Assembly: GCA_043736515.1 (NCBI GenBank)
Contig: JAYTCK010000013.1
Location: 12,214-76,213, forward strand
Origin: a bacterium
GTDB taxonomy: Bacteria > Patescibacteriota > Minisyncoccia > Phycocordibacterales > UBA6899
Length of the DNA stretch: 64,000 nt
Direction: 5' to 3'
This document shows, in pieces, positions 3,335 through 54,569 of this stretch (position 1 is its first letter; each line of letters opens with the position of its first letter). The position numbers and the translations under genes are program-made. Under the pieces are notes generated by a model that did no database searches, was not told the DNA's origin, and was given only the letters and a program-made list of their open reading frames with translations.

Positions 3335-4141
3335 ATGGATCAGAAGGCAGAGAGTGGGGATGGGCACACGAAGAGTGACGAGTACTTCAGGGCACTGAAC
3401 GACCTCACGAGAAGATATCACCTCCCAGGAAATTTCGATCGCCATACTCGATGTTACGTTGAAATGGGAATGATCTCCTGGCCAGTCAACAGCTTCGACA
3501 TAACGCCAGTGGGATTCCCTGCTCGTTCGTTTAGGTTGAACATCTATCTCCTCCTGCGTAATCCCTTCTATTATGGTGAATTTGAATATCCGATGGGGAG
3601 TGGTAATTGGTATCCCGGCAAACAAACACCCATTATCACCAAGGAACTTTTCGATAGAGTGCAGTCATCTCTTCAAGATCACTACATTCCAAAAACGGAA
3701 AGCAGGGAGTTCGCCTTCACGAAGCTCATTAAATGCGGGTACTGCGAGAGTGGCATCACCGCCGACGAAAAATTCAAGAGACTCAAAGACGGAGGAACAA
3801 ATCGGCATGTCTATTATATGTGCACCAAGGGCAAGGGTGTGGAGTGCAAGAATGCGCCGATCAATGAGAAAGACCTAATCGAAGAATTGACTGGGCTACT
3901 CGACACCATCGACCTCGACGAGATCGGAATGAGGTCAAAGATCGAGGACGAAATGGCCCGCTATAATAAATTCCGTATCGGCGTGCTCGGACTGAAAACG
4001 AAAGAGCGCAATACCGATGTCGATGTGCGCAACTACGCAAAGTACCTGCTCAAAGATGGCACGCTAACCGAGAAGCGCGAGCTACTGGTATGCCTCAAGA
4101 GTCAGCTCATTCTGAAAGATCGAAAAGTATCACTGCAATAG
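3335..4141 (+). pseudogene. C-terminal fragment of a large serine recombinase. It has the recombinase-domain tail (NPFYYGEFEY), a zinc ribbon (KCGYCESGITADE ... YYMCTKGKGVECKN) and a coiled coil. The N-terminal resolvase catalytic domain is absent
   Basis: ORF-track protein of 268 aa. No catalytic-domain sequence upstream at 3100-3334, which holds only a short unrelated ORF. Adjacent to tRNA-Gly and a duplicated tRNA fragment. Confidence 0.55.
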
Positions 4142-6945: not shown

Positions 6946-7377
6946 TTAACGTTCCACTTGAATGACTTGTGTCAACTCTGCTGTGGGCGCCTTTACAACA
7001 ATACGATTTCCGGATGAGGTAGCAATCGTATAGCCTGTGTTATTAACGGAAGTTGATAAAGGATCAACGGGCATGCTAACAATGTAGCTTGGGACCAAGC
7101 CAGAGAGATCTGCGCATGATGTTGTTGCAACAGCGTTTGACTTACAGACCTGCTTATCAGTTCCATTAATTCCCGAAGGAAGTGCCCCGCGGTTGTCTAC
7201 TGCGTACTGATGTACTGCATTTAAAATGGCATTTACATTACTCCAGCGCTGAGAGTTGTTTGCCTGAGCAAATTGACGTGCGGGGTTAATTGCAACAACG
7301 ACAATTGCTGCGAGGATAGCGATGATACCGATAACCACGAGCACTTCAATAAGCGTAAAACCTTTATTTTTCTTCAT
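6946..7377 (-). CDS. Type IV pilin (prepilin with class III signal peptide)
   Basis: MKKNKGFTLIEVLVVIGIIAILAAI: G/F cleavage site, Glu at +5, hydrophobic N-terminal helix. Confidence 0.85.
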   Translation of the reverse strand: MKKNKGFTLIEVLVVIGIIAILAAIVVVAINPARQFAQANNSQRWSNVNAILNAVHQYAVDNRGALPSGINGTDKQVCKSNAVATTSCADLSGLVPSYIVSMPVDPLSTSVNNTGYTIATSSGNRIVVKAPTAELTQVIQVER

Positions 7378-7502
7378 GTCTCATATAAAAACTAATAAAT
7401 AATTCCTTAGATACTACCGTACATATACTATTCTACAGCACAGAAAGTGGGCATGAAAGGGCGAGAAGGGCATAAACTGTGCAAAACTCATCTAATCTGT
7501 AC

Positions 7503-8021
7503 TTAATGGCCGACCGATATGATATCTCCGTTTTCGGACAAAAGCGCTGTCACCATGATGCCGGTTTCGTCATGAACTAAAACTGCATATCCGCTTCCCA
7601 TTCCGTCCGCGAGTGTGTCAACGGGGAGTTCTTTGAGGTAGGCGGGAATAAGGTGAGAAAGGCTTACAAACCCGGCCTCACTGCACCGTGCTGCATCTAT
7701 ATGAGGATGACAAATTTCTTGAGCAGTCCCGGTGGCTCGAAGGAGAAGCTCCCCATTGAGCATTCTTTGGTACTCGCTCAAGCTATTGTGCAGCATATTC
7801 ACCTGACTCCACCGCTCGGCATTACGAGCTTCGGCAAAGGCATTCGATGGGTTCATGGTCACAATCGCAAGAGTTCCTAATACGAAAAATAAACTCACTA
7901 TCATGAGTACTTCAATAATACTCAACTTATGGGGTGACCCCTTAAGGAATGATCGTTTCCTCGGAGCGTAACGCCCTTTTTTTTGTGGTGCTTTGTGAAG
8001 TTGTAAAAAATTATTTATCAT
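7503..8021 (-). CDS. Pilin-like protein with a non-canonical leader
   Basis: N-terminal segment SIIEVLMIVSLFFVLGTLAIV is pilin-like, but it lacks a canonical G-F/M cleavage motif. Sits in the pilus operon. Confidence 0.55.
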   Translation of the reverse strand: MINNFLQLHKAPQKKGRYAPRKRSFLKGSPHKLSIIEVLMIVSLFFVLGTLAIVTMNPSNAFAEARNAERWSQVNMLHNSLSEYQRMLNGELLLRATGTAQEICHPHIDAARCSEAGFVSLSHLIPAYLKELPVDTLADGMGSGYAVLVHDETGIMVTALLSENGDIISVGH

Positions 8022-8026
8022 AAGTC

Positions 8027-9625
8027 TTAATTCTGAATTTCTTCAGTGTATTTTTCCGAAACCCACCCATCACCACGCTCGCTCAAATCAAGATGAATCC
8101 AATCTTTTTCTTGCCCGATCACTACATACTCTTCCTGCGGATAAATTTTTGTAACCGAATCAAATGTCGCACCCGGACCACTTCGCACATTGAGCCATCC
8201 TGTCGGAGTGTTGCGAATGCGTACTTTTGTCTCATTTGCAATTACTTCCGTAGACGTGGCCTCCTCTTCTGGGGTGATTTCTTCAACTACCATTTCGGTT
8301 GTTGTGCCCGTATTCAAATTCACTTCAGTCACAGGGGTGCTGGTACTAATGCCACCGCTTGACGCAGGTGCAATACGGGAAATATTTTGTTCACGCAGCC
8401 CCATGTAGGGAAGGTATAAATATGCATATGCGACATACGCAAAAAGGATCAAGCTTGCACCAAAAAGTGGAAGTGCAAGTTTTCTCCATTGTCTCAAAAT
8501 TTTTGCTTCACGCTCTTCCCACTTCTCTCCTTCCCATCCGTGAAGGAGATTAATCCCCTCATTTTCGGGGCTCGGTGAACGAGCGCGGAGCGAAAGCCCT
8601 ATCACGGGTGCATACAACACAGATTCTTGTTCCCCAAGGATTTGCGCTGCAGACTTAGAAAGTAGCGCTAGCGGATTACCAAGAACCACATCGCATTTCA
8701 AGTTCATCGCTAGGTATACCACAATGTCGGGTATAAGTGCCTCGCCGCCAGCCAAGACAACATTGGTCACTGCCTTGTGATATGTTGATTCAAAATAGCT
8801 TGTCGCCTTTGTTAATTGAGGCAGTATAAGCTGAAGCTGCTCTTGGAGTATAACCATGGAGCGATTGTCGGGAAGTGCGCGAGAAAGTCCACTCGTCCGC
8901 TTCAGTTCTTCGGCGTCTTCAAAACTCACGTGCAATCGATCAATAAGCGCGCGGGTAAAGTTGTTTCCTGCAATCGGCAGGCTGAGAGAGAGTCCAAGTC
9001 GGTGTTGTTCGTCAAAAAAACCCAACGTGGTGGTTCTATTTCCGATATCGATAATCATGCTCGCATTGCCGTCTTCAAGGAGAAGCGCGCGGGCCAAGCT
9101 TATTGTTTCCATGTCGATCGCAAGCGGAAGCAAATTGACATCTTCACATACCGCAATGTACGCATCAATGATCTCTCGAGGTGCCGCAGCAAAAAGGATG
9201 CGATCATTTCCCCCGACATTCTCCTCTGCAATATGCCAATCAGTATAAAGCGAATCAAGCGGGGCAGGAATAATTTCACCCGCCTTTTTTTGTATAGTTT
9301 TTGCAATATGCTCATCGGGCAGCGACGAGGAGACAGTAAAGAGGTGCGTAAAACTTTGTGACTCGGGGATAGAAAAAACAACAGGAACTTCTTCGTCGAG
9401 CCTGATTGGCTTAGGGAGCGCGCCGGCACAGGCCGCACGAATATGTTCTCCCAATTGTTTTCGGTCACGCACCAACCCCCCCTCGATAACACCTTGGGGC
9501 AGCGGTGACCGCCCAAACGACACAATCTCATTCTTTGAATTCAAACGTAAAACTGCACAGGTGCGGTCACTGATGTGGAGTGCAATTGGAGAAACGGTAA
9601 ATGATGAAAATGGAAACCAGCGCAT
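8027..9625 (-). CDS. pilM: PilM (actin-like pilus assembly ATPase fold) fused to a PilN-like transmembrane region and a C-terminal SH3b domain
   Basis: PilM-like core (IDIGNRTTTLGFFDE...), TM helix LALPLFGASLILFAYVAYAYL, C-terminal GWLNVRSGPGATFDSVTKIYPQEEYVVIG. Confidence 0.7.
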   Translation of the reverse strand: MRWFPFSSFTVSPIALHISDRTCAVLRLNSKNEIVSFGRSPLPQGVIEGGLVRDRKQLGEHIRAACAGALPKPIRLDEEVPVVFSIPESQSFTHLFTVSSSLPDEHIAKTIQKKAGEIIPAPLDSLYTDWHIAEENVGGNDRILFAAAPREIIDAYIAVCEDVNLLPLAIDMETISLARALLLEDGNASMIIDIGNRTTTLGFFDEQHRLGLSLSLPIAGNNFTRALIDRLHVSFEDAEELKRTSGLSRALPDNRSMVILQEQLQLILPQLTKATSYFESTYHKAVTNVVLAGGEALIPDIVVYLAMNLKCDVVLGNPLALLSKSAAQILGEQESVLYAPVIGLSLRARSPSPENEGINLLHGWEGEKWEEREAKILRQWRKLALPLFGASLILFAYVAYAYLYLPYMGLREQNISRIAPASSGGISTSTPVTEVNLNTGTTTEMVVEEITPEEEATSTEVIANETKVRIRNTPTGWLNVRSGPGATFDSVTKIYPQEEYVVIGQEKDWIHLDLSERGDGWVSEKYTEEIQN

Positions 9626-9661: not shown

Positions 9662-10078
9662 CTACGGTACGGTTGCCCACGAGCGAATCTCTAGCAAGGG
9701 ATTTACTTGTGCAATATCCACGCGCACATTTCGGACATAGTTGTTATGGATGCCTTGTGTTGTAATAACACGATCAACATTCCCCGAACCCGAAAGAGGC
9801 AGAATTCTGCATGTTTCCCCTCCACCTACTATTATAGTCTCATTACCGATATAGGCTAAATCGGCTTTCAGTCGCATCAATGCCTCCTCGGCACACGCAT
9901 CGCTCAAGAACAGCGCCCTAAGGGAGGATTCTTCCCCAGAAACTGCATTGAGCGTATCGATGCCGCGGAGTGACGATCCAACGCCAATAAGAAGCATCAG
10001 TGCGCCTGCAATAAGCACGCTGATAAGTGCAATATAGCCACCGTGTAATTCTGATCTTTTTTGTGTAAAAAGTAGCAT
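9662..10078 (-). CDS. Minor pilin-like protein
   Basis: Hydrophobic N-terminal helix GGYIALISVLIAGALMLLIGVG. Operon context. Confidence 0.45.
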   Translation of the reverse strand: MLLFTQKRSELHGGYIALISVLIAGALMLLIGVGSSLRGIDTLNAVSGEESSLRALFLSDACAEEALMRLKADLAYIGNETIIVGGGETCRILPLSGSGNVDRVITTQGIHNNYVRNVRVDIAQVNPLLEIRSWATVP

Positions 10079-10081
10079 ATT

Positions 10082-10597
10082 TTATCGTGTATTACCCAGC
10101 AGCAGCGTTGTCGTAAAAGTTTCAGAAAACTGGAAAGGACGCCACACCCCCGTTGTGCTCGCCGAAAGCAACAACGTCACACGCACCCCAGTCGACGTGC
10201 TCATTGTCCCAACTGAGGAAAAAACGATATCGTCAACACGCACAAGAGGGGGTGTTATAGCAACGGAAGGGCTCGTTCCCAATGTGCGAAAAAGCGTTCC
10301 ATTTACCAGCGTAATCCTCCCTGCCCCGACACTGGGACTCAGTGTCTCAAGTGCCGATGACGTTGCAGAGACTCCCGGGGTGGTAATCGCATTGCTTACA
10401 TTTACAAGCTCTGACAATGTGCCGAATACTTTTGTTGCAGTAGCGAATACATCTCCAATTGCTCTCCCTTTTGTCTTTGCGTCCATGACACTCATACTCA
10501 CGGAGCCAACCCCAATAAGAAGCACAACAACAATGGCAATATAGAGAATCATCTCGATCAATGTCGTGCCTCGGCTTTTGTTTATAGAGACTCTCAT
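10082..10597 (-). CDS. Prepilin-type pseudopilin
   Basis: RGTTLIEMILYIAIVVVLLIGV: G/T cleavage site with Glu +5. Confidence 0.7.
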   Translation of the reverse strand: MRVSINKSRGTTLIEMILYIAIVVVLLIGVGSVSMSVMDAKTKGRAIGDVFATATKVFGTLSELVNVSNAITTPGVSATSSALETLSPSVGAGRITLVNGTLFRTLGTSPSVAITPPLVRVDDIVFSSVGTMSTSTGVRVTLLLSASTTGVWRPFQFSETFTTTLLLGNTR

Positions 10598-10600
10598 GAG

Positions 10601-13402
10601 TTAATTATACGTTATTGAAACATCTGTTAGTGCAGGTGTCGTTATTCCATCTCCCACAAGTTTCGCGCGGTACTGTATCCACTCAAGACCATCAGCAAGT
10701 GGGTCCGGTGTGATGATGCTTCCTGAAACAGGAAATGTCCCTCCTCGGATACCGCCCGATCCAACCCACGCAGCGTTTATAAGTCCAGCTTCTGTGGCAG
10801 AAGTACGCACCTGTACTGTTGTTGTTCCTGTTCCTGATTGAGTCCAATCAATACTGCCCCACACAACTCCCGTACTCCCCACATCAAATGCAGATGACGT
10901 GAGCCACCCCTCCCGAGCAAATAATGAAGAAACTGCAGATGGTGCCACAATAGCAAATTCCCGATTATTATCCGCGGAGGAAAGATACGCATAAACCCCA
11001 TCCGTAGCAACACCACTTACAACACCCCCAAATAGGAGCGTCCCGATTCGCTGTGGTACTCCCGGATTTATTGTGTTGAGAATAGTGAAGCCTGCTCCTG
11101 ACTGGTTGTTTCCGACAAACACAAGACTGCCCAATGCGCGAACGGAATTATTGTCTGCACCAAGATCCAAGGAACTCGTGAATGTAATTGCGCCGGAAAG
11201 CACATTGAACGCAAAGAGGAAAAGATCACTAGCGGCCCCATTGTTTTGGGTCCCCAGTACAACATGAGTATTGTTTACATAAGTAATACTGAGTGCATCT
11301 GTGGTGCCGGTTGTGTTATACGATTGCACTTCAGTGAGAATCCCCGGTATGTTCCTATTGAGTATCATCAACTCCTTTGCATCATTCGCTGTCGCAACAC
11401 CAATGTATCCTCCGCGAAGAAACACAAGGCCGTTTACATTTGCACCCACTTCAAATGCAGCCGAAAGCGTCGGCAGAGAGGGGTTTGCTACATCAAGGAG
11501 GTGCACTTCGCGACCACCTCCCGCCGTATTATTCCTCGTACCAAGAGCGAGTGTGGTGCCCGACACCGCAACGGTCGCTCCATCAAGACTCCCGAGACTA
11601 TTATACACACCGACTATTGTGGGATTATTGGGATCAGCAATATTCACCACAATAAGTTCGCGATTGTTGTCGCTCGTTGCCAAGTAAGCATAGGGACCGG
11701 AAACCGCAATCGCGTTTACGTCGGCACCAATTTCTAATGAACGAATAAATTGGGGGAGTGCGGGGTCAATTATATTAATGACCGAAAACTCTGCGCTACT
11801 TCCGCTCACAAGTGTTCCCACGTATGCATAATTTCCGCTTACTGCCATTCCTACTCCGTCGGCAGCACTAGTCAAATTCACACTGCTTCGCAGGAGTGGT
11901 ACCTCCCATTCACCACTCCCTCCTTTGAGGACGACAAGTTCCGGATTGTTATTGGCAAGACCGACATATATATACGGTCCAATCGGTAGTAGGGTGTTTG
12001 CCCCTGCACCTTGTGTGACATCGTATATAGCGGGGGCGAGGAAGGATGGGAGAGCAAACGCAATAACCTCACTATTTCCTAGCGGAGTTGCAGCATACAG
12101 ACGAGCATCAGAACCAAGTGCAAGTTTGTGAACCGCCACTGATACATCTGCACCATCGCTTATCGCGAGTACCCCGAGAGGATTTGCTACATCCACACGC
12201 ACAACCTCCTGTGCTGTGGATTGGTTTCGTGCGATGTAGAGCTCAGTCCCACCTAGCACAAAGGACCTCACATCTGCACCGCCAGGGAGATCGAGCGAAT
12301 TTGCTGTGCCAAAATCACTTGTACGCACAACCAAAAGTTCAATTGCATCCGAGGTTCCCATAAATAGGTATGGTTCATAAAGTGCAAGTGCATTCACTCT
12401 TCCCGGATAATTTGCGGTACGCACAGTCGGAACTCCTCCTGTGGGATTTGCAATGTTGAATTCGTACAATTCAAAACTTGTTGAATTGGCACGGCCGAGA
12501 TAGAGCGTTGTTCCTGTTGCAACAAGCGAGAGCGCGTCGGCTCCACCAGCAAGGTTGAGTGCTTGTACCTCTCCCAGGTCGGAACGACGAAGCACGACAA
12601 GTTCGCGTGTATCACTGTCTGTTGCAAGGTAGATATAGTTTCCTGACACGAGAACGGCATTCACTGTCGCACCGATATCCACGCTTCCGAGCACTGAAAG
12701 CGTGCCCCGTCCGGCATCAGCGAGGTCGAGGGCCGTAAACGGTTTAGTAGAAGCGGCAGAGGATGCAAGATACAGAACACCATCTGCTTCTGCCATTGCC
12801 GAAAGTGTTCCGATATCCGGCATATCATAAGTAAGAAACTCGCTGGGTTTTACCCAATCACCGCGGGGAGAGAGGAGTACTGCACCATCGCCATCGTTAC
12901 CCACCCTCACACCATTTAATTTTCCTCCTTCAAAATCTGCGACGGTGGTATGCGTCCACCGCGAGCCGTACAGTTGGTGGAGAAATGTTTGCGTTTCAAC
13001 TTTTCCCACTGTCCCAATTCGCGAGGGCCACTCGACCGTCACCCGGGCGAGCAATTTTCCAATGCCGGACGAAGAAATGGTAACGGTGCGTGTGAACTTG
13101 TCCGTAATATCCGGTGTGGGAGTAAGCTGCCAATTTGATCCCGAAAGTGCGAGACCATGAGTACCCGCGGTAAGCAGTGAGTAGTTTTCCGATCTTATGC
13201 TCCGTAGTGCGCCAATACTTTCCTGTGCGACAAGTGTGGCACGAAAGCGCTCCACCGCATCACTCGTCATAAGCATTCCTGAAAGACCGATGGTGCCGAG
13301 TGACGCAACGAAGAGCGTAAAGATTGCAATCGCAAGGAGTACCTCAACGAGGCTTATTCCACGATTGTAATGTTTCTTTAATTTATCAGTAGTCAGTATC
13401 AT
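10601..13402 (-). CDS. Giant (933-aa) prepilin-type protein, candidate pilus tip adhesin. It has an N-terminal pilin helix followed by multiple LVIVD-type beta-propeller repeats
   Basis: N-terminus NRGISLVEVLLAIAIFTLFVA. Repeats such as YAYLATSDNNRELIVVNIADPNNPTIVGVYN, REVHLLDVANPSLPTLSAAFE, GNYIYLATDSDTRELVVLRRSDLG. Confidence 0.7.
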   Translation of the reverse strand: MILTTDKLKKHYNRGISLVEVLLAIAIFTLFVASLGTIGLSGMLMTSDAVERFRATLVAQESIGALRSIRSENYSLLTAGTHGLALSGSNWQLTPTPDITDKFTRTVTISSSGIGKLLARVTVEWPSRIGTVGKVETQTFLHQLYGSRWTHTTVADFEGGKLNGVRVGNDGDGAVLLSPRGDWVKPSEFLTYDMPDIGTLSAMAEADGVLYLASSAASTKPFTALDLADAGRGTLSVLGSVDIGATVNAVLVSGNYIYLATDSDTRELVVLRRSDLGEVQALNLAGGADALSLVATGTTLYLGRANSTSFELYEFNIANPTGGVPTVRTANYPGRVNALALYEPYLFMGTSDAIELLVVRTSDFGTANSLDLPGGADVRSFVLGGTELYIARNQSTAQEVVRVDVANPLGVLAISDGADVSVAVHKLALGSDARLYAATPLGNSEVIAFALPSFLAPAIYDVTQGAGANTLLPIGPYIYVGLANNNPELVVLKGGSGEWEVPLLRSSVNLTSAADGVGMAVSGNYAYVGTLVSGSSAEFSVINIIDPALPQFIRSLEIGADVNAIAVSGPYAYLATSDNNRELIVVNIADPNNPTIVGVYNSLGSLDGATVAVSGTTLALGTRNNTAGGGREVHLLDVANPSLPTLSAAFEVGANVNGLVFLRGGYIGVATANDAKELMILNRNIPGILTEVQSYNTTGTTDALSITYVNNTHVVLGTQNNGAASDLFLFAFNVLSGAITFTSSLDLGADNNSVRALGSLVFVGNNQSGAGFTILNTINPGVPQRIGTLLFGGVVSGVATDGVYAYLSSADNNREFAIVAPSAVSSLFAREGWLTSSAFDVGSTGVVWGSIDWTQSGTGTTTVQVRTSATEAGLINAAWVGSGGIRGGTFPVSGSIITPDPLADGLEWIQYRAKLVGDGITTPALTDVSITYN

Positions 13403-13408
13403 TGAATA

Positions 13409-13858
13409 TCAATTTTGCGTAATTATTCCAGCGTCATTAACCTGGATTTTATGAGTTCTTTCATAGAGCATAATGGTAATCGTTCCTGTCGCAGTAGGTA
13501 TTCCTGATACTCGAGCAAAAATAATTTCGTCTTCCTCGCTATTAATATTTGTGCCCGCGGGAAGTGGGAACATCTCGTCACGTGAAACAAGACGCGTACT
13601 ATGGGTATCACCCTGAAAAAGCACATAGCTCGTCGGTAAGAGTTTCACTCCATGTGCACTCCCCTCCATTCCCAATCGAGCCCTTGATTCTGCGTTGCGA
13701 AGCGCACTCAATATGCCAGTTGTGGTTTCATCGGCAACTTGAAACTGATAGAAACGAAATCCTACAGGAAGAGCGAGCGCAAGCAATGCCGTGCCCAGGG
13801 AAAGTACGAGAAGTATTTCGATTATTGAAAAGCCTTTTTGGGGTGATTGTAACCGCAT
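13409..13858 (-). CDS. Prepilin-type minor pilin, FimT/GspH-like
   Basis: QKGFSIIEILLVLSLGTALLALAL: G/F cleavage site with Glu +5. Confidence 0.7.
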   Translation of the reverse strand: MRLQSPQKGFSIIEILLVLSLGTALLALALPVGFRFYQFQVADETTTGILSALRNAESRARLGMEGSAHGVKLLPTSYVLFQGDTHSTRLVSRDEMFPLPAGTNINSEEDEIIFARVSGIPTATGTITIMLYERTHKIQVNDAGIITQN

Positions 13859-13902
13859 AACTTAAACTAAACCAAATAAGATTGTCCTATTGTCTCCTTG
13901 CG

Positions 13903-15033
13903 TTATCTTCCTGCACTCGATGTAAACTGGTAGATCGGCATAATGATTGCGATTGCAATAAAGGCGACCATAACACCCATGACAAGGAGAAGTACCGGCT
14001 CAATAACCGTAGGTAAGCGCTTCGTCATGGTATACACCTCTTTGCGATAGTATTCGGTAAGATACCCAAAGGTTTCGTCGAGCGTACCGCTTTTTTCTCC
14101 GACTGCAAGAATGCTCGTGAAGTCGCGCGGAAAAAGCTTGGGGTATCCTTTAAGTGCGGAGGCGAGGGTGGTCCCTCGTTGCACTTGCTTGCTGACGTCA
14201 ACGATGGCCTCCCTGTAGCGCAAGTTTGTTGCACCTTCTGCCGTTACATCGAGAATTTCATAGATTGAAAGCCCACCGTGAAAAAGCGTGGTGAAGAGTT
14301 GTCCTACAAGCGTCAGCTGATACTCACGGAGCATGCGTCCAACAAAAGGAATTCGGAGATACATACCGTGAAGCACACGCCGTACTGGAAGCAAACGATT
14401 CAGAAAAATAACAAGTACGGCAATGGCAGCGCAGAGTAGTGCGATGATAAACCATGACTCTTGAATCGTATTGGTGATCCAGAGGAGAATGCGTGTCGGA
14501 AGTGGGAGCTCCCCTTTCATTTGAGAAAAAACGGGAAGCAGTCGCGGGAGCACTAAAAGCGAGAGTCCACTCGATACTCCAATGGTCGCGACGAATACGA
14601 TGGCGGGGTAGAGCATTGCACCATGTACTTCCCTTTTAATGTCCGCATTGTGCTCAAGCCAATCAGCCAAAAAATTGAGGTTCTCATCAAGTGTTCCCGA
14701 GGCCTCACCTGCTTTAACTACCGAAATCATGACGTCTCCAAATACTCGGCGATGCTTTGCGAGCGCGTCAGTAAGTGTGACGCCAGACTCAACGTCATTT
14801 TTCATTTTGAGCAAAATCTTGGAAAGCCGTGGCGTGGCGGTGCTGGAAAGCTCCTCGAGAGACTCGTTGATCGTCATTCCACTCTTCAGCATGAGTGAAA
14901 GATTTTTAGAAAAGTGCACCAATTCTGCGGTTCCTATGCCGAACATATCTCTATAGTATACAGCATCCTGAATAAAGCATGGAACATAAAAAGTTCCAAA
15001 ATAAGCTGCCGGAAAAATCGTGGGGGGCACCAT
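13903..15033 (-). CDS. pilC: Type IV pilus inner-membrane platform protein PilC (GspF family)
   Basis: Two GspF-type domains and three TM segments. The ORF-track version extends to 15276 and would overlap the RT gene. An internal Met (MVPPTIF...) at 15033 is the likely start. Confidence 0.85.
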   Translation of the reverse strand: MVPPTIFPAAYFGTFYVPCFIQDAVYYRDMFGIGTAELVHFSKNLSLMLKSGMTINESLEELSSTATPRLSKILLKMKNDVESGVTLTDALAKHRRVFGDVMISVVKAGEASGTLDENLNFLADWLEHNADIKREVHGAMLYPAIVFVATIGVSSGLSLLVLPRLLPVFSQMKGELPLPTRILLWITNTIQESWFIIALLCAAIAVLVIFLNRLLPVRRVLHGMYLRIPFVGRMLREYQLTLVGQLFTTLFHGGLSIYEILDVTAEGATNLRYREAIVDVSKQVQRGTTLASALKGYPKLFPRDFTSILAVGEKSGTLDETFGYLTEYYRKEVYTMTKRLPTVIEPVLLLVMGVMVAFIAIAIIMPIYQFTSSAGR

Positions 15034-15101
15034 GCTCCTAATAAGAGAAACCGCTGAGCGTCTGTTGCCCACGTCTACTGCTAACCGTGCTGCGTACGAG
15101 C

Positions 15102-16097
15102 TTAAAACTCCCAAAAAGAAAGAATCTGCTGCTTTAAGCCATGAGCATTCCCATGACTCAAGAGTCCAAGATAGGAATTGATTGTTTCTGCCTTGCCTTT
15201 TTTTGCTCTGATCCCCCGAAGCATTCTTTTCTTCGTCGCTGTTCGCAGTACACGATGATCGGGAAAATGCACCCACCCAAGAAAGTCCACGCCGGATGCG
15301 AATGCCCGAAGCGACACCTTGTTGGGATGAAGTTCCAATTTCAACATTTCCCCCAAAAACTCTTCAATGCGTGGTAGCAGAGTTTCAAGCAGACTTTTGT
15401 CTTCCGAAAAAAAGACAAAATCATCCGCATAACGAATATAATATTTTGCTTTGAGTGTATGCTTTACAAATTGATCAAATTCGTTCATGTAGATATTCAC
15501 CAAGAGTTGGGAGGTCAGATTACCGAGTGGAAGACCCTTCCCGGGTGCGGTGCTCTCAAAGCTTTCAATCACACGCAGAAGCAACCAAAGAATATCTTGG
15601 TTCGTAATATATTTTTTAAAAATACTCATCAATATCTCCTGATCAATCGAAGCAAAAAATTTGCGAATATCACACTTCAGCACCCAGCATGTCCGTGTGT
15701 GATTCTGAGAGACTTTGTATCCAAGAGCACGGAACCGATCAATTGCTCTGTGTGTCCCCTTTCCTTCACGACAGGAATACGAGTCTGCGATAAACATGCG
15801 ATCAAAGTAGGGATAGAGAATGCGGTAGATGGCATGATGTAGCAATCGGTCGCGCACTGAAGCTTTGTGGATATTGCGCGGTTTGGGGTCGGAGATATTG
15901 AAGGCGTAATATTCACCATGGCGATAGGTCTTCCCTTTCAGATCGGCATGCAAACAAAAAACGTGGTCTGACAATTGATACTGAAATTCCTGCACATCAC
16001 TCTTTTTTCTCTTTCCCTTTAAGAATCCTCTCCACGCCGCGAGCAAATTTTCCACAGAAATGATATCCTCATATGTATGAATGAACTGAATACCCAT
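15102..16097 (-). CDS. Diversity-generating retroelement (DGR) reverse transcriptase
   Basis: YADDFVFF catalytic box. The DGR-specific LGNLTSQ motif replaces the canonical QGxxxSP. N-terminus ENLLAAWRGFLKGKRKK. ORF track starts at TTG 16133. ATG 16097 is more likely. Confidence 0.85.
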   Translation of the reverse strand: MGIQFIHTYEDIISVENLLAAWRGFLKGKRKKSDVQEFQYQLSDHVFCLHADLKGKTYRHGEYYAFNISDPKPRNIHKASVRDRLLHHAIYRILYPYFDRMFIADSYSCREGKGTHRAIDRFRALGYKVSQNHTRTCWVLKCDIRKFFASIDQEILMSIFKKYITNQDILWLLLRVIESFESTAPGKGLPLGNLTSQLLVNIYMNEFDQFVKHTLKAKYYIRYADDFVFFSEDKSLLETLLPRIEEFLGEMLKLELHPNKVSLRAFASGVDFLGWVHFPDHRVLRTATKKRMLRGIRAKKGKAETINSYLGLLSHGNAHGLKQQILSFWEF

Positions 16098-16110
16098 ACA
16101 CCAAAGGTTA

Positions 16111-16120
16111 CCCCCCCCCC
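16111..16120. repeat. Homopolymeric C10/G10 tract between the divergent avd and RT starts
   Basis: ACCCCCCCCCCG on the + strand, 13 nt upstream of RT ATG 16097 on the minus strand. Confidence 0.8.
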
Positions 16121-16154
16121 GAGCATTTTGCAACCCAAACTCATCCCAGTTGTT

Positions 16155-16508
16155 TTGAAATTAAAAGACACTTACGGAGTGTGGCAAAACTATCTCAACC
16201 ACTTTCCCAAGGCCAATCGTTTTACCCTTGGATCAAAAATTGACGACGTATTTCTTGGAGCAATTGAGTATTGCTTTCTAGCAAGTTACGCATCCGCCGG
16301 TGACAAACTCATATTTATCGACAAAGCGATATCGCGGGTCGATCTCATAAAATTGCTTTTGCAACTCGCGTGGGATATTCAGGCGCTTGATACGAAAAAA
16401 TATGTTCACCTATCGGAATATTTAGCGGAGAGCGGAAAGATGCTGGGTGGATGGCGACGACAAATTGCAAACAAAACTCCCGAGACTATTGCTCGGGAGA
16501 AATTATAA
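16155..16508 (+). CDS. avd: Avd-like accessory variability determinant (four-helix-bundle DGR protein)
   Basis: About 117 aa from a TTG start (the ORF track extends to ATG 16077, which would overlap the RT start). C-terminal GKMLGGW motif typical of bAvd. Lies between RT and TR, but on the opposite strand to RT, TR and target. Confidence 0.55.
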   Translation: MKLKDTYGVWQNYLNHFPKANRFTLGSKIDDVFLGAIEYCFLASYASAGDKLIFIDKAISRVDLIKLLLQLAWDIQALDTKKYVHLSEYLAESGKMLGGWRRQIANKTPETIAREKL

Positions 16509-16513
16509 GAGTA

Positions 16514-16926: not shown

Positions 16927-16974
16927 AAGGGTCCAAGGTACAAAGGGTCAAAGTGCGGACCCAAGGAGCGAGAG

Positions 16975-17571
16975 TCAGAGTGCGGAGTTGCGAACCCCAA
17001 GGAAACGGTAGTCGCCAAACCAGTCAGCGTCCCGCCAGCCGAGGCTGAGGTCGCGCTCCGAGCCATCCCTGCACAGATACGGTACGTCCCGACTGCCGTC
17101 CACCTTCGCGACCGAACCGAGAGCAACGATCGGGAACTTACGTTGCTCTTCGGGGTTTGCAGCGGCGGAGGCGAGCAAGTGTTCGATCTTCCCGGGTTGA
17201 TAGCCCTCGGCGATAATCAGGCGTTCGGCTTCGTCCGCTGAGACGACACGATCGAAGTGGAAAAGCTTGCGCTCGACCACCACGATACCAGAGCCGACGA
17301 CGGAAAAGCGTTTGGTGGTGATGTCGCTGTTGGTCCAGTCGTAGCGTCCGGCGGCGATCATTTGTTCGAGGGTGAGGGCGTAGTTGATGGCGAGGCGGGT
17401 GCCGCCACTCACTTCTTGTGGCGGATTGAGTCCCGCAAGGAACTTCTTCACATGCGTGAGGATATTCCCCTCCGAGAGACTCTTGACGTCGGCCGGAGTC
17501 CAGCCGTTACGCTCGAGTGCGTGATCAAGCTCCGCTGCTTGACGGGAAGACATAACAAACTTGTCGCTCAT
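16975..17571 (-). CDS. DGR target protein (198 aa) with a C-terminal variable repeat (VR 16990-17118)
   Basis: C-terminus ...DVPYLCRDGSERDLSLGWRDADWFGDYRFLGVRNSAL is encoded by the VR. Only 4 codons follow the VR before the stop. Confidence 0.8.
   Translation of the reverse strand: MSDKFVMSSRQAAELDHALERNGWTPADVKSLSEGNILTHVKKFLAGLNPPQEVSGGTRLAINYALTLEQMIAAGRYDWTNSDITTKRFSVVGSGIVVVERKLFHFDRVVSADEAERLIIAEGYQPGKIEHLLASAAANPEEQRKFPIVALGSVAKVDGSRDVPYLCRDGSERDLSLGWRDADWFGDYRFLGVRNSAL
16990..17118 (-). repeat. DGR variable repeat (VR)
   Basis: See the TR entry. Adenine-specific TR/VR mismatch pattern. Confidence 0.85.
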
Positions 17572-17913: not shown

Positions 17914-19623
17914 TTATGAGCTCTTTGTTGCACGCACAATCTCCTCGAGAGTTGTTTCTCCTGAAAGCACCTTGGTAATGCCGTCTTCGAGCATGGTTTT
18001 CATCCCTTCGGCGCGTGCCTGTTTGGTGATGATTTCGGCGGACGAACGGGCTGCAATGAGTGCGCGAATCTGGTCGGAAACTTCCATGACTTCAAAGATT
18101 CCAAGGCGGCCGTGATAACCCGTATCGCCGCATAGCTTACATCCATTCTTTGCGCCACGGTAAAAACGAATTTTTGCAATGTCCTTTTTTCCGGAAAATT
18201 CTTTGATCAACTTGGTCAGCTCCGGTTCACTTTTTAAAAGTGCTAATTCATCTCCCCCAAGGAAATAATTGGTTCGACATCTGTCACAAACACGTCGCGT
18301 GAGACGTTGAGCAATAATGATATTGATCGAAGAAGAAATAAGGAAAGGCTCAATCCCCATTTCAACAAGTCGAGGAAATGTTGTTGATGCATCATTGGAG
18401 TGTAATGTTGAGAGAACAAGATGTCCGGTCATTGCAGCATTCACCGCAATTGACGCAGTCTCGTTATCGCGAATTTCTCCAACCATCACAATATCAGGAT
18501 CTTGGCGTACGATAGAACGCAGTCCTGTTGCAAAGGTAAGTTTCTTTTTTTCGTTCACCTGCGTTTGTTGGACATGCTCAACAGCATACTCAACCGGGTC
18601 TTCAATTGTCATAATATTCACATCAGATGTATTCAGGATTTGGAGGATAGCGTAGAGGGTCGTTGTTTTTCCAGCACCTGTCGGTCCCACAGTAAGAATC
18701 ATGCCGTATGGCTTGCGTGACGCGCGTTCTACTTTTGCTAAATCGGAAGTATCAAATCCAATGTCAGTGAGTGAGAAGCGCTGTGACTCTTCAGCCAAAA
18801 GACGCATGACAATATTTTCTCCGTGCGTCACGGGAAGTATTGAAAGACGCACATCAAATTTTTCCGGGCGTTCATTTGGGGTAAGAGGGTCTGCCGCAAA
18901 ACTAAATCGTCCGTCCTGCGGAGCCGCGTGTTCATCAGTACGAAGTCGAGACATGATCTTAAGGCGAAACACAACCTTCTCATGAAGTGGCAGTGGGTAG
19001 CGCGATAGTTCATGCAGTATGCCGTCGATACGAAACCTAACCGACACATGTGCGAGGAGTGGTTCAATATGAATATCAGACGCACGAGAAGAGTGCGCAT
19101 ATGCAAGAATGTAACTTACAAATGTCACTACGTCTTGATCGCGAAATTGTACCTTGAGCTGCTCCAATGTTTTTTCGATTTTATCTCCAAAACTTTTTTC
19201 ATATTGCCTGAGCACTTCACGCAATGCTTTAGGGGTCGCATACGAGATCAAGACCGTCTTCCCATGCTTGCGTTCAATCATGTTAAAAAATTCGTAGTTG
19301 TTGGGATTTGCAGTTGCAATGGAGAGAGACTTCTCATCTTGCCGAAAAATTACCGCCTCCTGACTGCGTGCAACAACCTCGGGAAGAAGTTCGAGTAACT
19401 CTTTTGGAATCCTCTCTTGTGCGAGGTCGATGAAATTAACTTGAAAAATACTTGCGAGCAATTGTCCAAGATGTGCGTCGGAAATAAGTCCGCTCTGCGG
19501 CAAGTATTCGAGGATTGGAATCCCCTTTGCTTCGACATCTTTTGCAGCCTGATCAAACTCCTCGGCTGTCACAAGGTTCATGCCGAGTAAGTATGTTTTA
19601 ATTTGTGCTACGGAAATTTCCAT
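17914..19623 (-). CDS. pilB: Type IV pilus assembly ATPase PilB (GspE family)
   Basis: Walker A GPTGAGKTTT, GspE N-terminal domain, C-terminal tetracysteine motif. Confidence 0.9.
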   Translation of the reverse strand: MEISVAQIKTYLLGMNLVTAEEFDQAAKDVEAKGIPILEYLPQSGLISDAHLGQLLASIFQVNFIDLAQERIPKELLELLPEVVARSQEAVIFRQDEKSLSIATANPNNYEFFNMIERKHGKTVLISYATPKALREVLRQYEKSFGDKIEKTLEQLKVQFRDQDVVTFVSYILAYAHSSRASDIHIEPLLAHVSVRFRIDGILHELSRYPLPLHEKVVFRLKIMSRLRTDEHAAPQDGRFSFAADPLTPNERPEKFDVRLSILPVTHGENIVMRLLAEESQRFSLTDIGFDTSDLAKVERASRKPYGMILTVGPTGAGKTTTLYAILQILNTSDVNIMTIEDPVEYAVEHVQQTQVNEKKKLTFATGLRSIVRQDPDIVMVGEIRDNETASIAVNAAMTGHLVLSTLHSNDASTTFPRLVEMGIEPFLISSSINIIIAQRLTRRVCDRCRTNYFLGGDELALLKSEPELTKLIKEFSGKKDIAKIRFYRGAKNGCKLCGDTGYHGRLGIFEVMEVSDQIRALIAARSSAEIITKQARAEGMKTMLEDGITKVLSGETTLEEIVRATKSS

Positions 19624-19634: not shown

Positions 19635-20006
19635 TTATTTACCGGAAGGAGGGAGTACGCAGATTGCTTCAACAATATTGTGGACAGTGTTTTCGCCTTT
19701 CATAAAGTATGCGGTTGCACCTAGCGATAATGCCTCCTCTTTATCATGCTCTTGCGCCAGTGTGGAAAAAATAAATATCGTGGCATGTTTCGCTTCGGGT
19801 AAATTGTGGATTTTTTCAAGCACTTCAAAACCATCTGTTTTGGGTAAAATCAAATCGAGGACTACAACATCGGGTTTCCATTCTTTTACTTTTTGAATGC
19901 CCTCCTCTCCACCAGCAACAACAGCTACCTCCATGTTTGCCTGATGCAATTCAGACTCGAGGAGCGTGCTCAAGAATTTATCATCGTCAATTACTAAAAC
20001 TTTCAT
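19635..20006 (-). CDS. Single-domain response regulator (receiver)
   Basis: MKVLVIDDD..., DVVVLDLILP, K near the C-terminus. Confidence 0.8.
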   Translation of the reverse strand: MKVLVIDDDKFLSTLLESELHQANMEVAVVAGGEEGIQKVKEWKPDVVVLDLILPKTDGFEVLEKIHNLPEAKHATIFIFSTLAQEHDKEEALSLGATAYFMKGENTVHNIVEAICVLPPSGK

Positions 20007-21347: not shown

Positions 21348-21836
21348 TTACACTTTGGTGATAATTTCTACTACCCCCGTAGCACAATCAAAATAGACAT
21401 TACGCCCCACCGTTCCGCCGATCACTTCTGTTTCAATTTTTATTCCCAATTCAAGGAGGCGAGCTCTGGCAGACTCAGTGTTTTCAAAGCCAATACCTTT
21501 TTTGTCACCATCAAGAAGTGTAAACATATGTGCGCCTCCCACGAGTTTAGCAACAAGACTTTCGCGCTTAGCTCCCCGTGCTTCAACCTCAAGGAGAAGG
21601 ATATCAATTGCCTTGTCCGCATATTTTGAAAAAAGTCTTCCCTCACTATCCCGGGTTGTATTTTGGTATTGATCGTCCCTTGCACGGGGAAGGATCGCAT
21701 GGGCCATTCCACCCACACGAGCAAGTCCGTCATGAAGCACAACAACAACGCATGAGCCAACACCATTTGTCACAATGGTGTACTCGTGATTTCCTGCAAA
21801 CAATTCCGCGATGCGAATTTCGATAGTTTTGCTCAT
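21348..21836 (-). CDS. cheD: CheD chemoreceptor glutamine deamidase
   Basis: GVGSCVVVVLHDGLARVGGMAHAILP matches the CheD signature. Confidence 0.8.
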   Translation of the reverse strand: MSKTIEIRIAELFAGNHEYTIVTNGVGSCVVVVLHDGLARVGGMAHAILPRARDDQYQNTTRDSEGRLFSKYADKAIDILLLEVEARGAKRESLVAKLVGGAHMFTLLDGDKKGIGFENTESARARLLELGIKIETEVIGGTVGRNVYFDCATGVVEIITKV

Positions 21837-21840: not shown

Positions 21841-22491
21841 TTATGAGACTATTTTACTTGTGAGCCTCAAAATTTCTTTTACGGCCTCTGGTCCAAGAAA
21901 AAGATACATGCGGCCTGTAACTTCTTCACCAAGATGACAGTCAGTTGCGTCTGGTGATGGATCAACACAAATGGTTACATTCATGGAAAAAAATTCTTCG
22001 TGCCGGGCAAACATTGAGGCGGTCAGCGAGTTGAAGATTGCTCCACCCATATCAACAACAACATTCGGTACGGAATGCTCGAGTGAACAATGAAGGAATT
22101 TTTCAAGTCCCTGGAGCATTCCTCCTGTCAGCACATTTCCTACTTCTTGAAAGACGGACCTGTCGAATGCATCAAGCGCGCGAAGATCTCCTACTTTTTT
22201 TCCGGAAAGGACTTGAAGAAGGTGTATCGCTGTGTCACGAGGGAAGAGCAGAAAAACATATCCGTCCAAACCACCCGAAATGCGGAGCAACACCGCAAGG
22301 GCAATATCTTGAGGCTTATCGATAAAGTGCGCAGCACTGACAGAAGTTTTGAGAGACGACATGGGAACACTGATCGTTGTCCTCTGTCCTACTAATTTCG
22401 AGAGAGTTGTGCCAGCATGAGACACGCCAATATTTAAAAGTTCAGCAAGCTGGTCTTTTTCATCTGCTGTAAGTTGGAGTAGTGATGTCAT
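21841..22491 (-). CDS. cheC: CheC-family CheY-P phosphatase
   Basis: N-terminus EKDQLAELLNIGVSHAGTTLSKLVGQRTTISVP is CheC/FliY-like. Confidence 0.7.
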   Translation of the reverse strand: MTSLLQLTADEKDQLAELLNIGVSHAGTTLSKLVGQRTTISVPMSSLKTSVSAAHFIDKPQDIALAVLLRISGGLDGYVFLLFPRDTAIHLLQVLSGKKVGDLRALDAFDRSVFQEVGNVLTGGMLQGLEKFLHCSLEHSVPNVVVDMGGAIFNSLTASMFARHEEFFSMNVTICVDPSPDATDCHLGEEVTGRMYLFLGPEAVKEILRLTSKIVS

Positions 22492-24286: not shown

Positions 24287-25372
24287 CTAGAATTTGCTGA
24301 CCCGATCAAGAATCCAATTAGGGATTTCCTCGAGGGCAAGTACTGCATCAACAACACCTTCGTGAAGGGCGCTTTTGGGCATAAATGGCACCACTGCTGT
24401 TTCTGGATCCTGGACAACTGTTACACCGCCATAAGATTTTATTGCACGGAGTCCCAATGTCCCATCACTTCCCATTCCTGAAAGCAACACCCCAAATACA
24501 CGCGAACCGTAACTCTTGGCAATTGTTTCCATGGTTTGGTCGATGACACCGTTTTCACTATCAGGGTTTGGAAAAGACAAGACAAATCGATGAGTACCAT
24601 CAGCCTCATCTTTTTTCGAATGCTCCTTATGCAGAAGAGAATATCCGCCGGGTACCACAAGTGCCGTGCCGGGCATAAATGCGTCATTGCCTTTTGCTTC
24701 CCGCACAGAAAGTCTGACGGTGCGATCGAGTCGTTCAGCAAAAAGCTCCGTAAAATATTTTGACATGTGCTGCACAACAACAAAAGCGATCTGTGGGGTT
24801 GGTGGAAAAATAGTGAGGAAGTGCTCAACTAATGGTGGTCCTCCAGTTGAAGCACCGATTACAACCACCGAAAGCGGGCTGTCATTGTGTGCATTACTTG
24901 GGATTGGTTTAGTACCGTGTATTTCAAGGTATGCGTATGCTTTCCTAATTTTTACTTGTTGAACCCCCACCTCATATATTTTTGAAACAATGGATTCTGC
25001 GATTTTTTCCAAATCCAAAGAAACCTCACCTGAAGGTTTTGCTATCACATGTGCTCCCGACTCACGTAACATCTGAAATACTTTTTGCCCGTCGGTGCCG
25101 TCAAAAGCGGAAAGCATGATGATCGCGGGAAGGATTTGATCGCCAAGCATAATCTCTGCCGTAGCTTCAATGCCATTTTTCTGAGGCATATGATAATCCA
25201 TCGTGATCACATCAGGCCTGAGATCTCGAGCAAGCCGCACAACTTCAGTCCCGGTGCTTGCAGTGCCAACAACCGTAATGCCGCTGTGCGCACGAAGAAG
25301 CTCGACGACATAGGTACGAATAAAAAATGAATCATCCGCTACGAGCACGCGAATGTCATCATTGTGATCCAT
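24287..25372 (-). CDS. cheB: CheB methylesterase (receiver plus methylesterase domain)
   Basis: RVLVADDS...TMDYHMP, VVIGASTGGP. Confidence 0.9.
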   Translation of the reverse strand: MDHNDDIRVLVADDSFFIRTYVVELLRAHSGITVVGTASTGTEVVRLARDLRPDVITMDYHMPQKNGIEATAEIMLGDQILPAIIMLSAFDGTDGQKVFQMLRESGAHVIAKPSGEVSLDLEKIAESIVSKIYEVGVQQVKIRKAYAYLEIHGTKPIPSNAHNDSPLSVVVIGASTGGPPLVEHFLTIFPPTPQIAFVVVQHMSKYFTELFAERLDRTVRLSVREAKGNDAFMPGTALVVPGGYSLLHKEHSKKDEADGTHRFVLSFPNPDSENGVIDQTMETIAKSYGSRVFGVLLSGMGSDGTLGLRAIKSYGGVTVVQDPETAVVPFMPKSALHEGVVDAVLALEEIPNWILDRVSKF

Positions 25373-54541: not shown

Positions 54542-54569
54542 TAAAACACAATTTATCCGCTATAATAGT

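Follow-up and report, generated by a model that had tools for sequence, protein, structure and literature searches.

Patescibacteria rely on attachment to host cells, for which few factors, type IV pili among them, have experimental support. Modular pilins, a design for which an adhesin role has precedent, were catalogued by Raynaud et al. (2021, PNAS, PMC8179133), who name a Candidatus Falkowbacteria pilin of 860 residues that has 12 motifs of IPR013211, the LVIVD repeat. Dataset S1 of that study holds pilin-LVIVD architectures (IPR012902-IPR013211) with 1, 2, 5 and more detected repeats; these entries are merely counted, and their function is described there as unknown. In Nanosynbacter lyticus TM7x, deletion of the minor pilin PilX2 lowered host binding from 10.6% to 4.6%, with the filament retained (Grossman et al. 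2024, PMC11623550). Core minor pilins prime pilus assembly, and PilI-PilJ-PilK form a tip licensing complex (PMC13533445).

Here, we describe a 933-residue protein encoded in a 64,000-nucleotide stretch of DNA (the window) from an ultrasmall bacterium of the Patescibacteria (CPR), in which a pilin module is joined to beta-propellers. Overall, we conclude that this pilin-propeller design is real and well conserved and that it belongs to an architecture class already catalogued by Raynaud et al. (2021).

Domain architecture of the 933-residue protein

A preliminary description of the window had placed a 933-residue reading frame at this position. The frame is real and fills the interval as a single ORF, with the correction that it is read from the minus strand; the plus-strand frame is crowded with stops. 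The gene and its parts are as follows.

10601..13402, minus strand: ORF of 933 aa, ATG to stop
13358..13402, minus strand: leader peptide, aa 1-15 (MILTTDKLKKHYNRG), read from the translation; its last residue, Gly, lies just before the predicted prepilin-peptidase cleavage site
12974..13357, minus strand: pilin module, aa 16-143, with a hydrophobic alpha-1 helix (18-72 in the model) bearing Glu at +5, followed by an antiparallel sheet (80-142)
12860..12973, minus strand: conserved connector, aa 144-181 (SRWxxTTxxDFxxGxxNG…GDGAVxL), modelled at low confidence (pLDDT 48-65)
11897..12859, minus strand: beta-propeller 1, aa 182-502, blades 1-7 of LVIVD type; 28 strands, grouped by fours into seven blades, with repeat HMM matches and blades in register
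10937..11896, minus strand: beta-propeller 2, aa 503-822, blades 8-14 of LVIVD type, holding the best Pfam LVIVD match (561-601)
10604..10936, minus strand: C-terminal all-beta sandwich-type domain, aa 823-933 (GWxTSSxFDxG…QVRTS…WIQYR…TDVxITYN), with 5-6 strands in the model (pLDDT 65-87)

The translated N-terminus, MILTTDKLKKHYNRG/ISLVEVLLAIAIFTLFVASLG (the slash marks the predicted cleavage site), has a basic leader whose last residue is Gly, a Glu at position +5 and a hydrophobic run of some 20 residues, so that every feature of a class III signal peptide of the prepilin type is present, as had been proposed for the motif G/ISLVEV. The leader and cleavage motif, RG/(I/V)SL(I/V)EVL, is kept in 13 homologues, across which the alpha-1 positions E20, V21, L22, A24 and F28 are invariant. 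Two Pfam families had been put forward as HMMER checks, and they behaved differently: LVIVD (PF08309) matched at 46.3 bits against a cut-off of 20.2 (E 2.6e-12, top stretch 561-601), whereas the pilin N-terminal family N_methyl (PF07963) scored 20.0 bits, 1.2 bits short of its cut-off of 21.2. Within the family, LVIVD was matched in 13/13 members and N_methyl in 12 of the 13 at E≤1 (best 2.5e-5); TIGR02532 was absent from the matches listed for the 933-residue protein in the profile scan. Gly, Ala, Ser and Thr make up 39.5% of the protein and Cys is absent, a composition typical of exposed pilins by the measure used in PMC11623550. The protein is acidic (79 Asp+Glu versus 50 Lys+Arg), and its nearest relatives all come from Patescibacteria metagenome-assembled genomes.

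In the AlphaFold model of the full protein (mean pLDDT 81.3), a long N-terminal alpha-helix packs on an antiparallel beta-sheet in the lollipop arrangement, and the model shows this module to have the GspI/XcpV-type tip pseudopilin fold. The features expected of a GspI-type subunit, namely the fold, Glu5 and a gene lying between H-type and J/K-type minor pilins, are all present. At the level of sequence profiles, membership failed for both gspI (TIGR01707, 15.7 bits versus a cut-off of 44.35) and pilV (TIGR02523, 14.9 bits versus 52.2).

The repeats between connector and C-terminal domain form propellers in the model, where 14 consecutive four-stranded blades span residues 182-820 and close into sevenfold rings. 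An HMM built from a single repeat (561-601) recovered 9 more copies at ≥5 bits, compared with 0 in 200 shuffles, giving 10-12 LVIVD copies by this approach. The two 7-bladed LVIVD propellers, which share 27.6% identity over 297 aa (E 4e-19), arose from an old internal duplication. The preliminary description had thus recognized the repeats correctly, but its figure of at least 8 is an undercount given the 14 modelled blades; likewise, the propeller fold it predicted was borne out by a confident model, although there are two such domains and not one, followed by an extra C-terminal domain. Neither disorder of the repeat region nor a lack of LVIVD matches, the two outcomes it had named as counting against a propeller, was encountered.

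Conservation across the 13 homologues falls on periodic scaffold positions of the propellers, with about one Glu per blade invariant or nearly so (E267, E311, E355, E399, E445, E538, E582, E632, E677 and E815 invariant; E488 nearly invariant), and revealed no distinct binding site. Full-length structural matches were generic eukaryotic WD40-type propellers that offered no functional lead; bacterial structural neighbours include E. coli YncE, a DNA-binding propeller.

Both segments that flank the propellers are conserved. In the connector, W149, T152, F157, G160, G164, G171, G173, A174 and L177 are invariant among the 13 homologues, and HMM matches to it were confined to relatives that also have the C-terminal domain (5/5). 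The C-terminal beta-sandwich, about 110 aa long, contains 19 invariant alignment columns. A Pfam scan of this domain alone at E≤10 returned no family, and PDB sequence searches gave nothing meaningful with the C-terminal-domain profile (best E 0.89), the whole-family profile (best E 0.21) or the N-terminal profile (best E 1.7).

The pilus operon and its second minor-pilin slot

The gene lies in a minus-strand cluster together with PilB, PilC, PilM and five other pilin genes, as listed here.

19635..20006, same operon: response-regulator gene preceding PilB
17914..19623, minus strand: PilB-type assembly ATPase at the operon head (76.6% identity to the PilB of a related locus, L002)
13903..14946, minus strand: PilC/GspF platform protein (T2SSF E 2.2e-52; GspF E 3.3e-75)
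13409..13858, minus strand: upstream minor pilin, 149 aa, GspH/FimU-like (G/FSIIEILL; N_methyl 21.2 bits; IV_pilin_GFxxxE 19.2 bits versus a cut-off of 16.3; gspH E 9.5e-5)
10082..10597, minus strand: downstream minor pilin, 171 aa (G/TTLIEMIL; N_methyl 18.8 bits), candidate GspJ/PilW-position subunit, assigned from its place in the conserved gene order
9662..10078, minus strand: downstream minor pilin, 138 aa, without Glu5 (GG/YIALISVL), candidate GspK/PilX-type cap subunit, assigned from its sequence
8027..9625, minus strand: PilM-like assembly protein to which a transmembrane segment and, C-terminally, an SH3_3 domain are fused (PilM_2 E 5.4e-27; SH3_3 E 2.1e-7)
6946..8021, minus strand: two pilin genes, with products of 172 and 143 aa (143-aa product: N_methyl E 2.6e-10, gspG-like E 1.6e-10)

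The four minor-pilin genes (9662..13858) are separated by gaps of 3-6 nt and follow the order H-I-J-K, with the 933-residue gene second. Its setting in a run of minor-pilin genes, noted earlier, therefore holds, and the run is part of a type IV pilus (T4P) operon. The 149-aa GspH/FimU-like pilin keeps its position in related loci, and Glu5 is missing from the 138-aa pilin in all 16 homologous loci examined (16/16). Absence of Glu5 is a trait of GspK-type tip pilins. The 143-aa pilin, 67% identical to its counterpart in L002, is likely the major pilin. Although the PilC ORF extends mechanically to 15276, homologues and the 347-aa gene called on an identical contig (L036) start near 14946. The order response regulator-PilB-PilC is conserved in >20 loci, and the longer order running from the response regulator through PilB, PilC, the H-like pilin, the 933-residue gene, the 171- and 138-aa pilins and PilM to a pilin is common to about 25 Patescibacteria loci. 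Genes for the prepilin peptidase PilD and for PilT were not found among the 40 window ORFs scanned.

A complete DGR is also present in this operon, and its target is a different gene. The sole TR/VR pair within 10000-18000 has its VR inside a 198-aa ORF at 16975..17571, and on this ground we reject diversification of the 933-residue protein by this element.

At the second minor-pilin slot, the pilin module is conserved and the cargo is not: it may be absent, one propeller, two propellers or unrelated domains, and some lineages carry a bare 200-aa pilin there. A profile search returned 34,188 relatives at E≤1e-3, only a subset of which have the full layout of pilin, two propellers and C-terminal domain; a 930-960-aa layout is common to dozens of 50%-identity clusters. 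Cargo that differs by lineage at a fixed slot is what one would expect of a module that determines specificity, and it offers a testable handle on host specificity. More speculatively, the GspI/PilV-position minor pilin of Patescibacteria may be a dedicated carrier of exchangeable cargo, in which the connector and C-terminal sandwich, possibly forming one split domain, frame cassettes that set host or surface range; we hold this extension only tentatively. If it were true, the double propeller described here would represent one allele of a determinant of host specificity, and cargo on an I-type subunit, not on PilK or PilY1, would be a distinct way to arm a pilus tip.

Proposed function and alternative readings

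On balance, we consider the 933-residue protein likely to be a modular minor pilin of the type IV class that belongs to a tip/initiation complex and displays a binding module, with the two propeller domains probably forming the adhesive end of the pilus. The proposed role as a tip adhesin in episymbiotic attachment, raised in the preliminary description, is strengthened by the GspI-like fold, the operon position, the variable cargo and the published precedent of TM7x PilX2 (PMC11623550). Under this proposal, prepilin peptidase would cut after Gly15, and the protein would dock by its alpha-1 helix into the initiation complex that the minor pilins form on the PilC platform. As PilB drives polymerization of the major pilin, this complex would be pushed outward, bringing the cargo of about 780 residues to or near the pilus tip. 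There, the propeller faces, the C-terminal sandwich or both might bind a ligand on a surface, a host cell being the most plausible one, and pilus dynamics could then hold the small cell attached.

Archaeal bindosome-type proteins bear pilin-like signals and provide the model for another reading, in which the class III signal serves only export, processing and anchoring, and the propellers sit at the cell surface on a membrane-anchored protein that is not a filament subunit. A cargo of 780 residues is indeed awkward to fit into a filament, and the failure to find PilD or a retraction ATPase among the scanned ORFs points the same way. We nevertheless regard this as unlikely: the gene occupies a fixed slot in the H-I-J-K set of a complete T4P operon across about 25 loci, a bare pilin of 200 aa fills that slot in some lineages, and the protein keeps Glu5 and the GspI-like fold, both characteristic of subunits assembling with other pilins. 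A comparably low probability attaches to a tip or initiation subunit whose cargo serves biogenesis, envelope crossing or DNA uptake instead of host adhesion, for example by passing or gripping the cell wall or S-layer or by capturing DNA for competence. The structural neighbour YncE and the wall-binding-type SH3_3 domain on the adjacent PilM would suit such roles, as would the priming of assembly by core minor pilins (PMC13533445). Against them, the acidity of the protein disfavours DNA binding, and the swapping or loss of the cargo in related operons disfavours a core assembly role for the propellers; moreover, TM7x PilX2 is needed for host binding and unnecessary for filament extrusion (PMC11623550).

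That the propellers constitute a pilus-delivered enzyme, such as a lyase or hydrolase directed at cell-wall polymers of the host, appears very improbable, since neither the protein nor its family members gave a significant match to a catalytic family and invariance falls on the scaffold Glu and Gly of each blade, not on a single-site constellation. Least credible of all is membership in the PilY1/PilC family of tip adhesins, with which there is only a general resemblance, a beta-propeller tied to a T4P minor-pilin operon. The comparison with PilY1 and tip-adhesin families suggested in the preliminary description fails as a claim of homology, which we reject: PF05567/IPR008707 found no match at E≤1 in any of the 13 members, PilY1 was not among the top structural matches of the 933-residue protein, and the protein has a pilin module of its own. 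The modular minor pilin with a binding cargo thus remains the reading that we favour.

Comparison with known systems

In its canonical form GspI is bare, with about 100-120 residues, and canonical systems carry extra mass on the K-type subunit or on PilY1. Relative to GspI/XcpV/EpsI of type II secretion systems and to PilV/PilI, the I-position subunit here is distinguished by its cargo of about 780 residues. The protein shares with the PilY1/PilC tip adhesins a 7-bladed propeller and a gene beside minor pilins. However, the PilY1 propeller belongs to IPR008707/PF05567 and the present ones to LVIVD, and the tip-associated PilY1 is a non-pilin joined through a C-terminal beta-strand donated to PilK (PMC13533445), whereas the 933-residue protein has its own pilin module. 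Archaeal and bacterial LVIVD surface proteins (Adindla et al. 2004, PMC2447325; PF08309) contain the same repeat of about 42-45 residues, which is typical of surface proteins; most of them lack the pilin N-terminus seen here, being S-layer or large surface proteins.

The modular pilins of Raynaud et al. (2021, PMC8179133) follow the same design, an N-terminal pilin module with a grafted non-pilus domain, and the LVIVD propellers are such a domain, not being T4P specific. Compared with the entries listed there, the 933-residue protein is resolved into two propellers totalling 14 blades and a C-terminal domain that bears no annotation, and it is placed in a defined slot, that of a GspI-like second minor pilin, within a conserved operon. 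With the architecture catalogued and a functional analogue published, it represents no new kind of system; within a populous but unstudied family, it is a concrete and well-modelled candidate for a host-contacting pilus part. That analogue, TM7x PilX2 (Grossman et al. 2024, PMC11623550), is the best functional one, as a Patescibacteria minor pilin with a C-terminal 7-bladed beta-propeller encoded in a pilin locus. RCC1 families were absent from the Pfam matches at E≤1 of the 933-residue protein and the 13 members, and by description PilX2 is set apart by one RCC1-repeat propeller and no predicted PilD signal, whereas the protein described here has two LVIVD propellers, a clear G/ISLVE motif and a further C-terminal domain.

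A long prepilin bearing two propellers

The interval 10601..13402 holds one 933-codon ORF on the minus strand, and stops occur throughout the reading frame on the plus strand; the 933-aa ORF of the preliminary description is therefore present, with its strand now assigned as minus. The product begins MILTTDKLKKHYNRG/ISLVEVLLAIAIFTLFVASLG (slash, end of leader); the leader is basic and its last residue is Gly, and the hydrophobic segment after it carries Glu at +5. Alignment of 13 full-length homologues (identity, 39-78%) showed E20, V21, L22, A24, F28, and L30 to be invariant, with the N-terminal consensus RG/ISLIEVLLAIAIF, in agreement with the class III signal peptide previously proposed. 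Pfam N_methyl scored 20.0 bits on this protein, below its cut-off of 21.2, and was matched at E<=1 by 12 of the 13 family members (best E, 2.5e-5). The protein is acidic, lacks cysteine, and contains 39.5% Gly/Ala/Ser/Thr, a content taken as a mark of exposed pilins in a study of TM7x (PMC11623550).

Searches with Pfam LVIVD (PF08309) gave 46.3 bits (cut-off, 20.2), the best stretch being residues 561-601, and all 13 family members were matched. A single-repeat HMM seeded on that stretch found repeats at ~45-residue intervals between residues 202 and 819. With the seed left out, 9 further copies scored at least 5 bits, compared to 0 in 200 shuffles, and the repeats are thus far beyond chance. 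They were modelled as 14 four-stranded blades by AlphaFold2, using the 13-sequence alignment (mean pLDDT 81.3); the LVIVD repeats noticed earlier are real, although the count of "at least 8" was too low.

Predicted layout of the 933-aa pilin (AlphaFold2 model)
Residues 18-72: long helix
Residues 80-142: antiparallel sheet, forming the pilin module with the helix
Residues 144-181: connector, poorly modelled and strongly conserved
Residues 182-820: propeller region, 56 strands in 14 groups of four
Residues 831-932: all-beta domain

The cargo carried by the pilin module consists of two propellers and a beta-sandwich. When aligned in register, all 14 blades show the pattern …G-x-a-x-x-v-a-v-s-G-n-y-a-Y-l-A-t…rELvVvdvsdP. 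Invariant propeller residues are periodic, with about one Glu per blade (E267, E311, E355, E399, E445, E538, E582, E632, E677, and E815; E488 is nearly invariant), a distribution that resembles a scaffold more than it does one active or binding site. The connector is invariant among the 13 homologues at W149, T152, F157, G160, G164, G171, G173, A174, and L177. Conservation is also high in the C-terminal domain (residues 823-933), where 19 alignment columns are invariant; neither Pfam (E<=10) nor PDB sequences gave a match to it.

In structural comparisons, the pilin module scored 8.4 with XcpV (GspI), 7.9 with both GspI of the GspIJK complex and the GspK pilin core, and 7.5 with EpsI (GspI); other minor and major pilins ranked lower. 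As modelled, it has the fold of the gspI/pilV/gspJ families. The corresponding NCBIfam models matched weakly, far under their cut-offs, and the protein is therefore not a member of these families by sequence.

The pilin operon and neighboring genes

As noted in the preliminary description, the gene lies in a run of minor pilins; three others flank it, and the four are spaced 3-6 nt apart.

Operon order, all minus strand except avd within gene 3
Gene 1: response regulator
Gene 2: PilB
Gene 3: diversity-generating retroelement (DGR) cassette
Gene 4: PilC
Gene 5: 13409..13858, 149-aa GspH-like pilin
Gene 6: 10601..13402, 933-aa pilin
Gene 7: 10082..10597, 171-aa pilin
Gene 8: 9662..10078, 138-aa pilin
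Gene 9: 8027-9625, PilM fused to a transmembrane segment and an SH3_3 domain
Gene 10: 172-aa pilin
Gene 11: 143-aa GspG-like pilin, probably the major pilin

The 138-aa pilin, last of the minor set, lacks Glu at +5 (GG/YIALISVL), as do its counterparts in 16 of 16 related loci checked. Absence of this residue is a hallmark of GspK/PilX-type cap pilins. In two related loci, L006 and L016, a far longer ORF (~995 and 627 codons) occupies this position, suggesting that the K-type subunit can bear cargo as well. In the 532-aa product of gene 9, the PilM-like part is followed by the transmembrane segment, a low-complexity linker, and the C-terminal SH3_3; loci L001 and L002 keep the same PilM/PilN-like fusion, in which the last domain may be wall-binding. 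The mechanically called PilC ORF (13903-15276, 457 aa, GTG start) runs into the reverse transcriptase gene. In homologues, and in the gene call for the identical contig L036, PilC starts ~110 codons later (347 aa, 13903..14946), and the overlap is thus an artefact of mechanical ORF listing.

A complete DGR occupies 15102-17571, between pilC and pilB.

15102..16133, minus: reverse transcriptase (RVT_1, E 2.2e-26)
16077..16508, plus: Avd (bAvd, 41.5 bits)
16509-16649: template repeat (TR)
16985-17125: variable repeat (VR), in the C-terminal 48 residues of the 198-aa ORF
16975..17571, minus: 198-aa target ORF, with no Pfam match and no obvious signal peptide

On the minus strand, 17 of the 19 TR/VR differences fall at TR adenines, including 15 of 15 in the core. 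The 933-aa pilin was rejected as the DGR target, since the only TR/VR pair within 10000-18000 places its VR in the 198-aa ORF. The cassette is missing from all ~25 related operons compared and is therefore an insertion between pilB and pilC. Its layout is unusual in that avd is oriented opposite to the reverse transcriptase, TR, and target gene, so that a TR-to-reverse transcriptase transcript would run antisense through avd; the 5' end of avd also overlaps the mechanical reverse transcriptase ORF by ~57 nt.

Immediately downstream of the pilus operon, and sharing its strand, lies a chemosensory gene set (20743-26464) that may represent a pilus-linked system in a small-genome bacterium. At the far end of the window, large ORFs with weak or no Pfam matches lie upstream of a TraG/VirB4-type ATPase, and 53513-62713 may encode a conjugation system or one like type IV secretion.

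21348..21836: candidate CheD (probable)
21841..22491: CheC/CheX
22497..24239: CheA-like protein (from translation only)
24287..25372: CheB
25811..26464: CheW
53513..54541: large ORF with TSP3 repeat
54426..56120: large ORF
56133..58766: large ORF (877 aa)
60920..62713: TraG/VirB4-type P-loop ATPase
36954..37907: tyrosine integrase
3335..4141: serine-recombinase fragment

Variable cargo at a conserved slot

A word-indexed search returned only the 13 full-length homologues, one of which carries the annotation Candidatus Paceibacterota; run SRR22198304 contains an identical copy, on a contig of 9.2 kb. An exhaustive profile search retrieved 34,188 proteins at E<=1e-3, which are LVIVD proteins in general, and 3,804 at E<=1e-30, showing that the family is much larger. 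Among the best 150 cluster representatives, ~50 have lengths of 925-960 aa and align over their whole length; forms of ~600 aa carry either the pilin module and one propeller or one propeller and the C-terminal domain.

Scanning species-representative genomes yielded 35 loci. Those matching past the N-terminus are nearly all Patescibacteria MAGs (Paceibacterota, Saccharibacteria, Collierbacteria, Woesebacteria, Dojkabacteria, and Peribacteria), with a few bins labelled otherwise. By tblastn with the window's operon proteins, ~25 loci keep the order response regulator-PilB-PilC-H-like-[slot]-171-138-PilM-pilin. The gene thus holds a fixed slot, second of four, in a conserved minor-pilin set beside type IV pilus (T4P) machinery, and its cargo varies by lineage. 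The N-terminus at the slot is kept as (G)(F/I/V)S(L/I)(I/V)EVLLA(I/V)A(I/V)F, while ORF length ranges from ~200 to ~1,400 aa (~200, 460-510, 630-660, 930-990, 1015, and 1402 aa in L001-L028).

Slot architectures by domain HMMs
~200 aa: pilin only (L017, L020)
~460-510 aa: pilin and one LVIVD propeller (a dozen loci)
~630-660 aa: pilin, one propeller, and C-terminal domain (L003, L007, L010, L025)
~930-950 aa: pilin, connector, two propellers, and C-terminal domain (window, L001, L002)
To ~1,400 aa: pilin and other, non-LVIVD cargo, with or without C-terminal domain (L018, L019, L023, L024, L026, L027)

A connector HMM (motif W-x-x-T-T-x-x-D-F) matches only where the C-terminal domain is present (5 of 5), compatible with the two being one unit that frames the cargo.

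Proposed role and relation to known systems

We are highly confident in the architecture of the 933-aa pilin and its association with T4P. Incorporation at or near the pilus tip is somewhat favored, by analogy with established T4P and type II secretion system biology and work on a tip "licensing" complex (PMC13533445). After cleavage at Gly15, the protein would pair with the J-position pilin and, together with the Glu5-less K-type pilin, form an initiation complex on PilC. Addition of the major pilin, driven by PilB, would move this complex outward, leaving the cargo exposed at the tip or just beneath it. There it could recognize a ligand, on a host or on some other surface; such adhesion is a plausible role on which we are evenly divided. 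In support of the analogy, the adhesin may be a module grafted onto a pilin, as is the case for S. sanguinis PilB (PMC8179133), and in the saccharibacterium TM7x host binding fell from 10.6% to 4.6%, with filaments still present, when the propeller-bearing minor pilin PilX2 was deleted (PMC11623550).

Alternatively, the protein could be a membrane-anchored surface protein whose pilin signal serves for anchoring only; this is disfavored by the conserved slot, by the retention of Glu5, and by the GspI fold. Cargo acting in assembly, envelope crossing, or DNA uptake fits poorly with the protein's acidic composition and with the cargo being dispensable in related operons, and no catalytic signature supports enzymatic propellers. 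Homology to PilY1, a comparison raised in the preliminary description, was rejected: PF05567 was unmatched in every member, and PilY1 was not among the top structural matches. PilY1 is, furthermore, not a pilin.

An InterPro survey for modular pilins by Raynaud et al. (2021) described, as "of unknown function," a Candidatus Falkowbacteria pilin of 860 residues in which IPR013211 occurs 12 times, and its Dataset S1 lists several pilin-LVIVD architectures (PMC8179133); as IPR013211 is the LVIVD repeat, this class was already known. To it we add the assignment of the blades to two 7-bladed propellers, the unannotated C-terminal domain and conserved connector, placement of the pilin module at the GspI/PilV position of a conserved H-I-J-K set, and cargo polymorphism at that slot. 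TM7x PilX2 is an already studied functional analogue from the same superphylum. In textbook systems the large module is on PilK/PilY1, whereas here it is on the I-type subunit.
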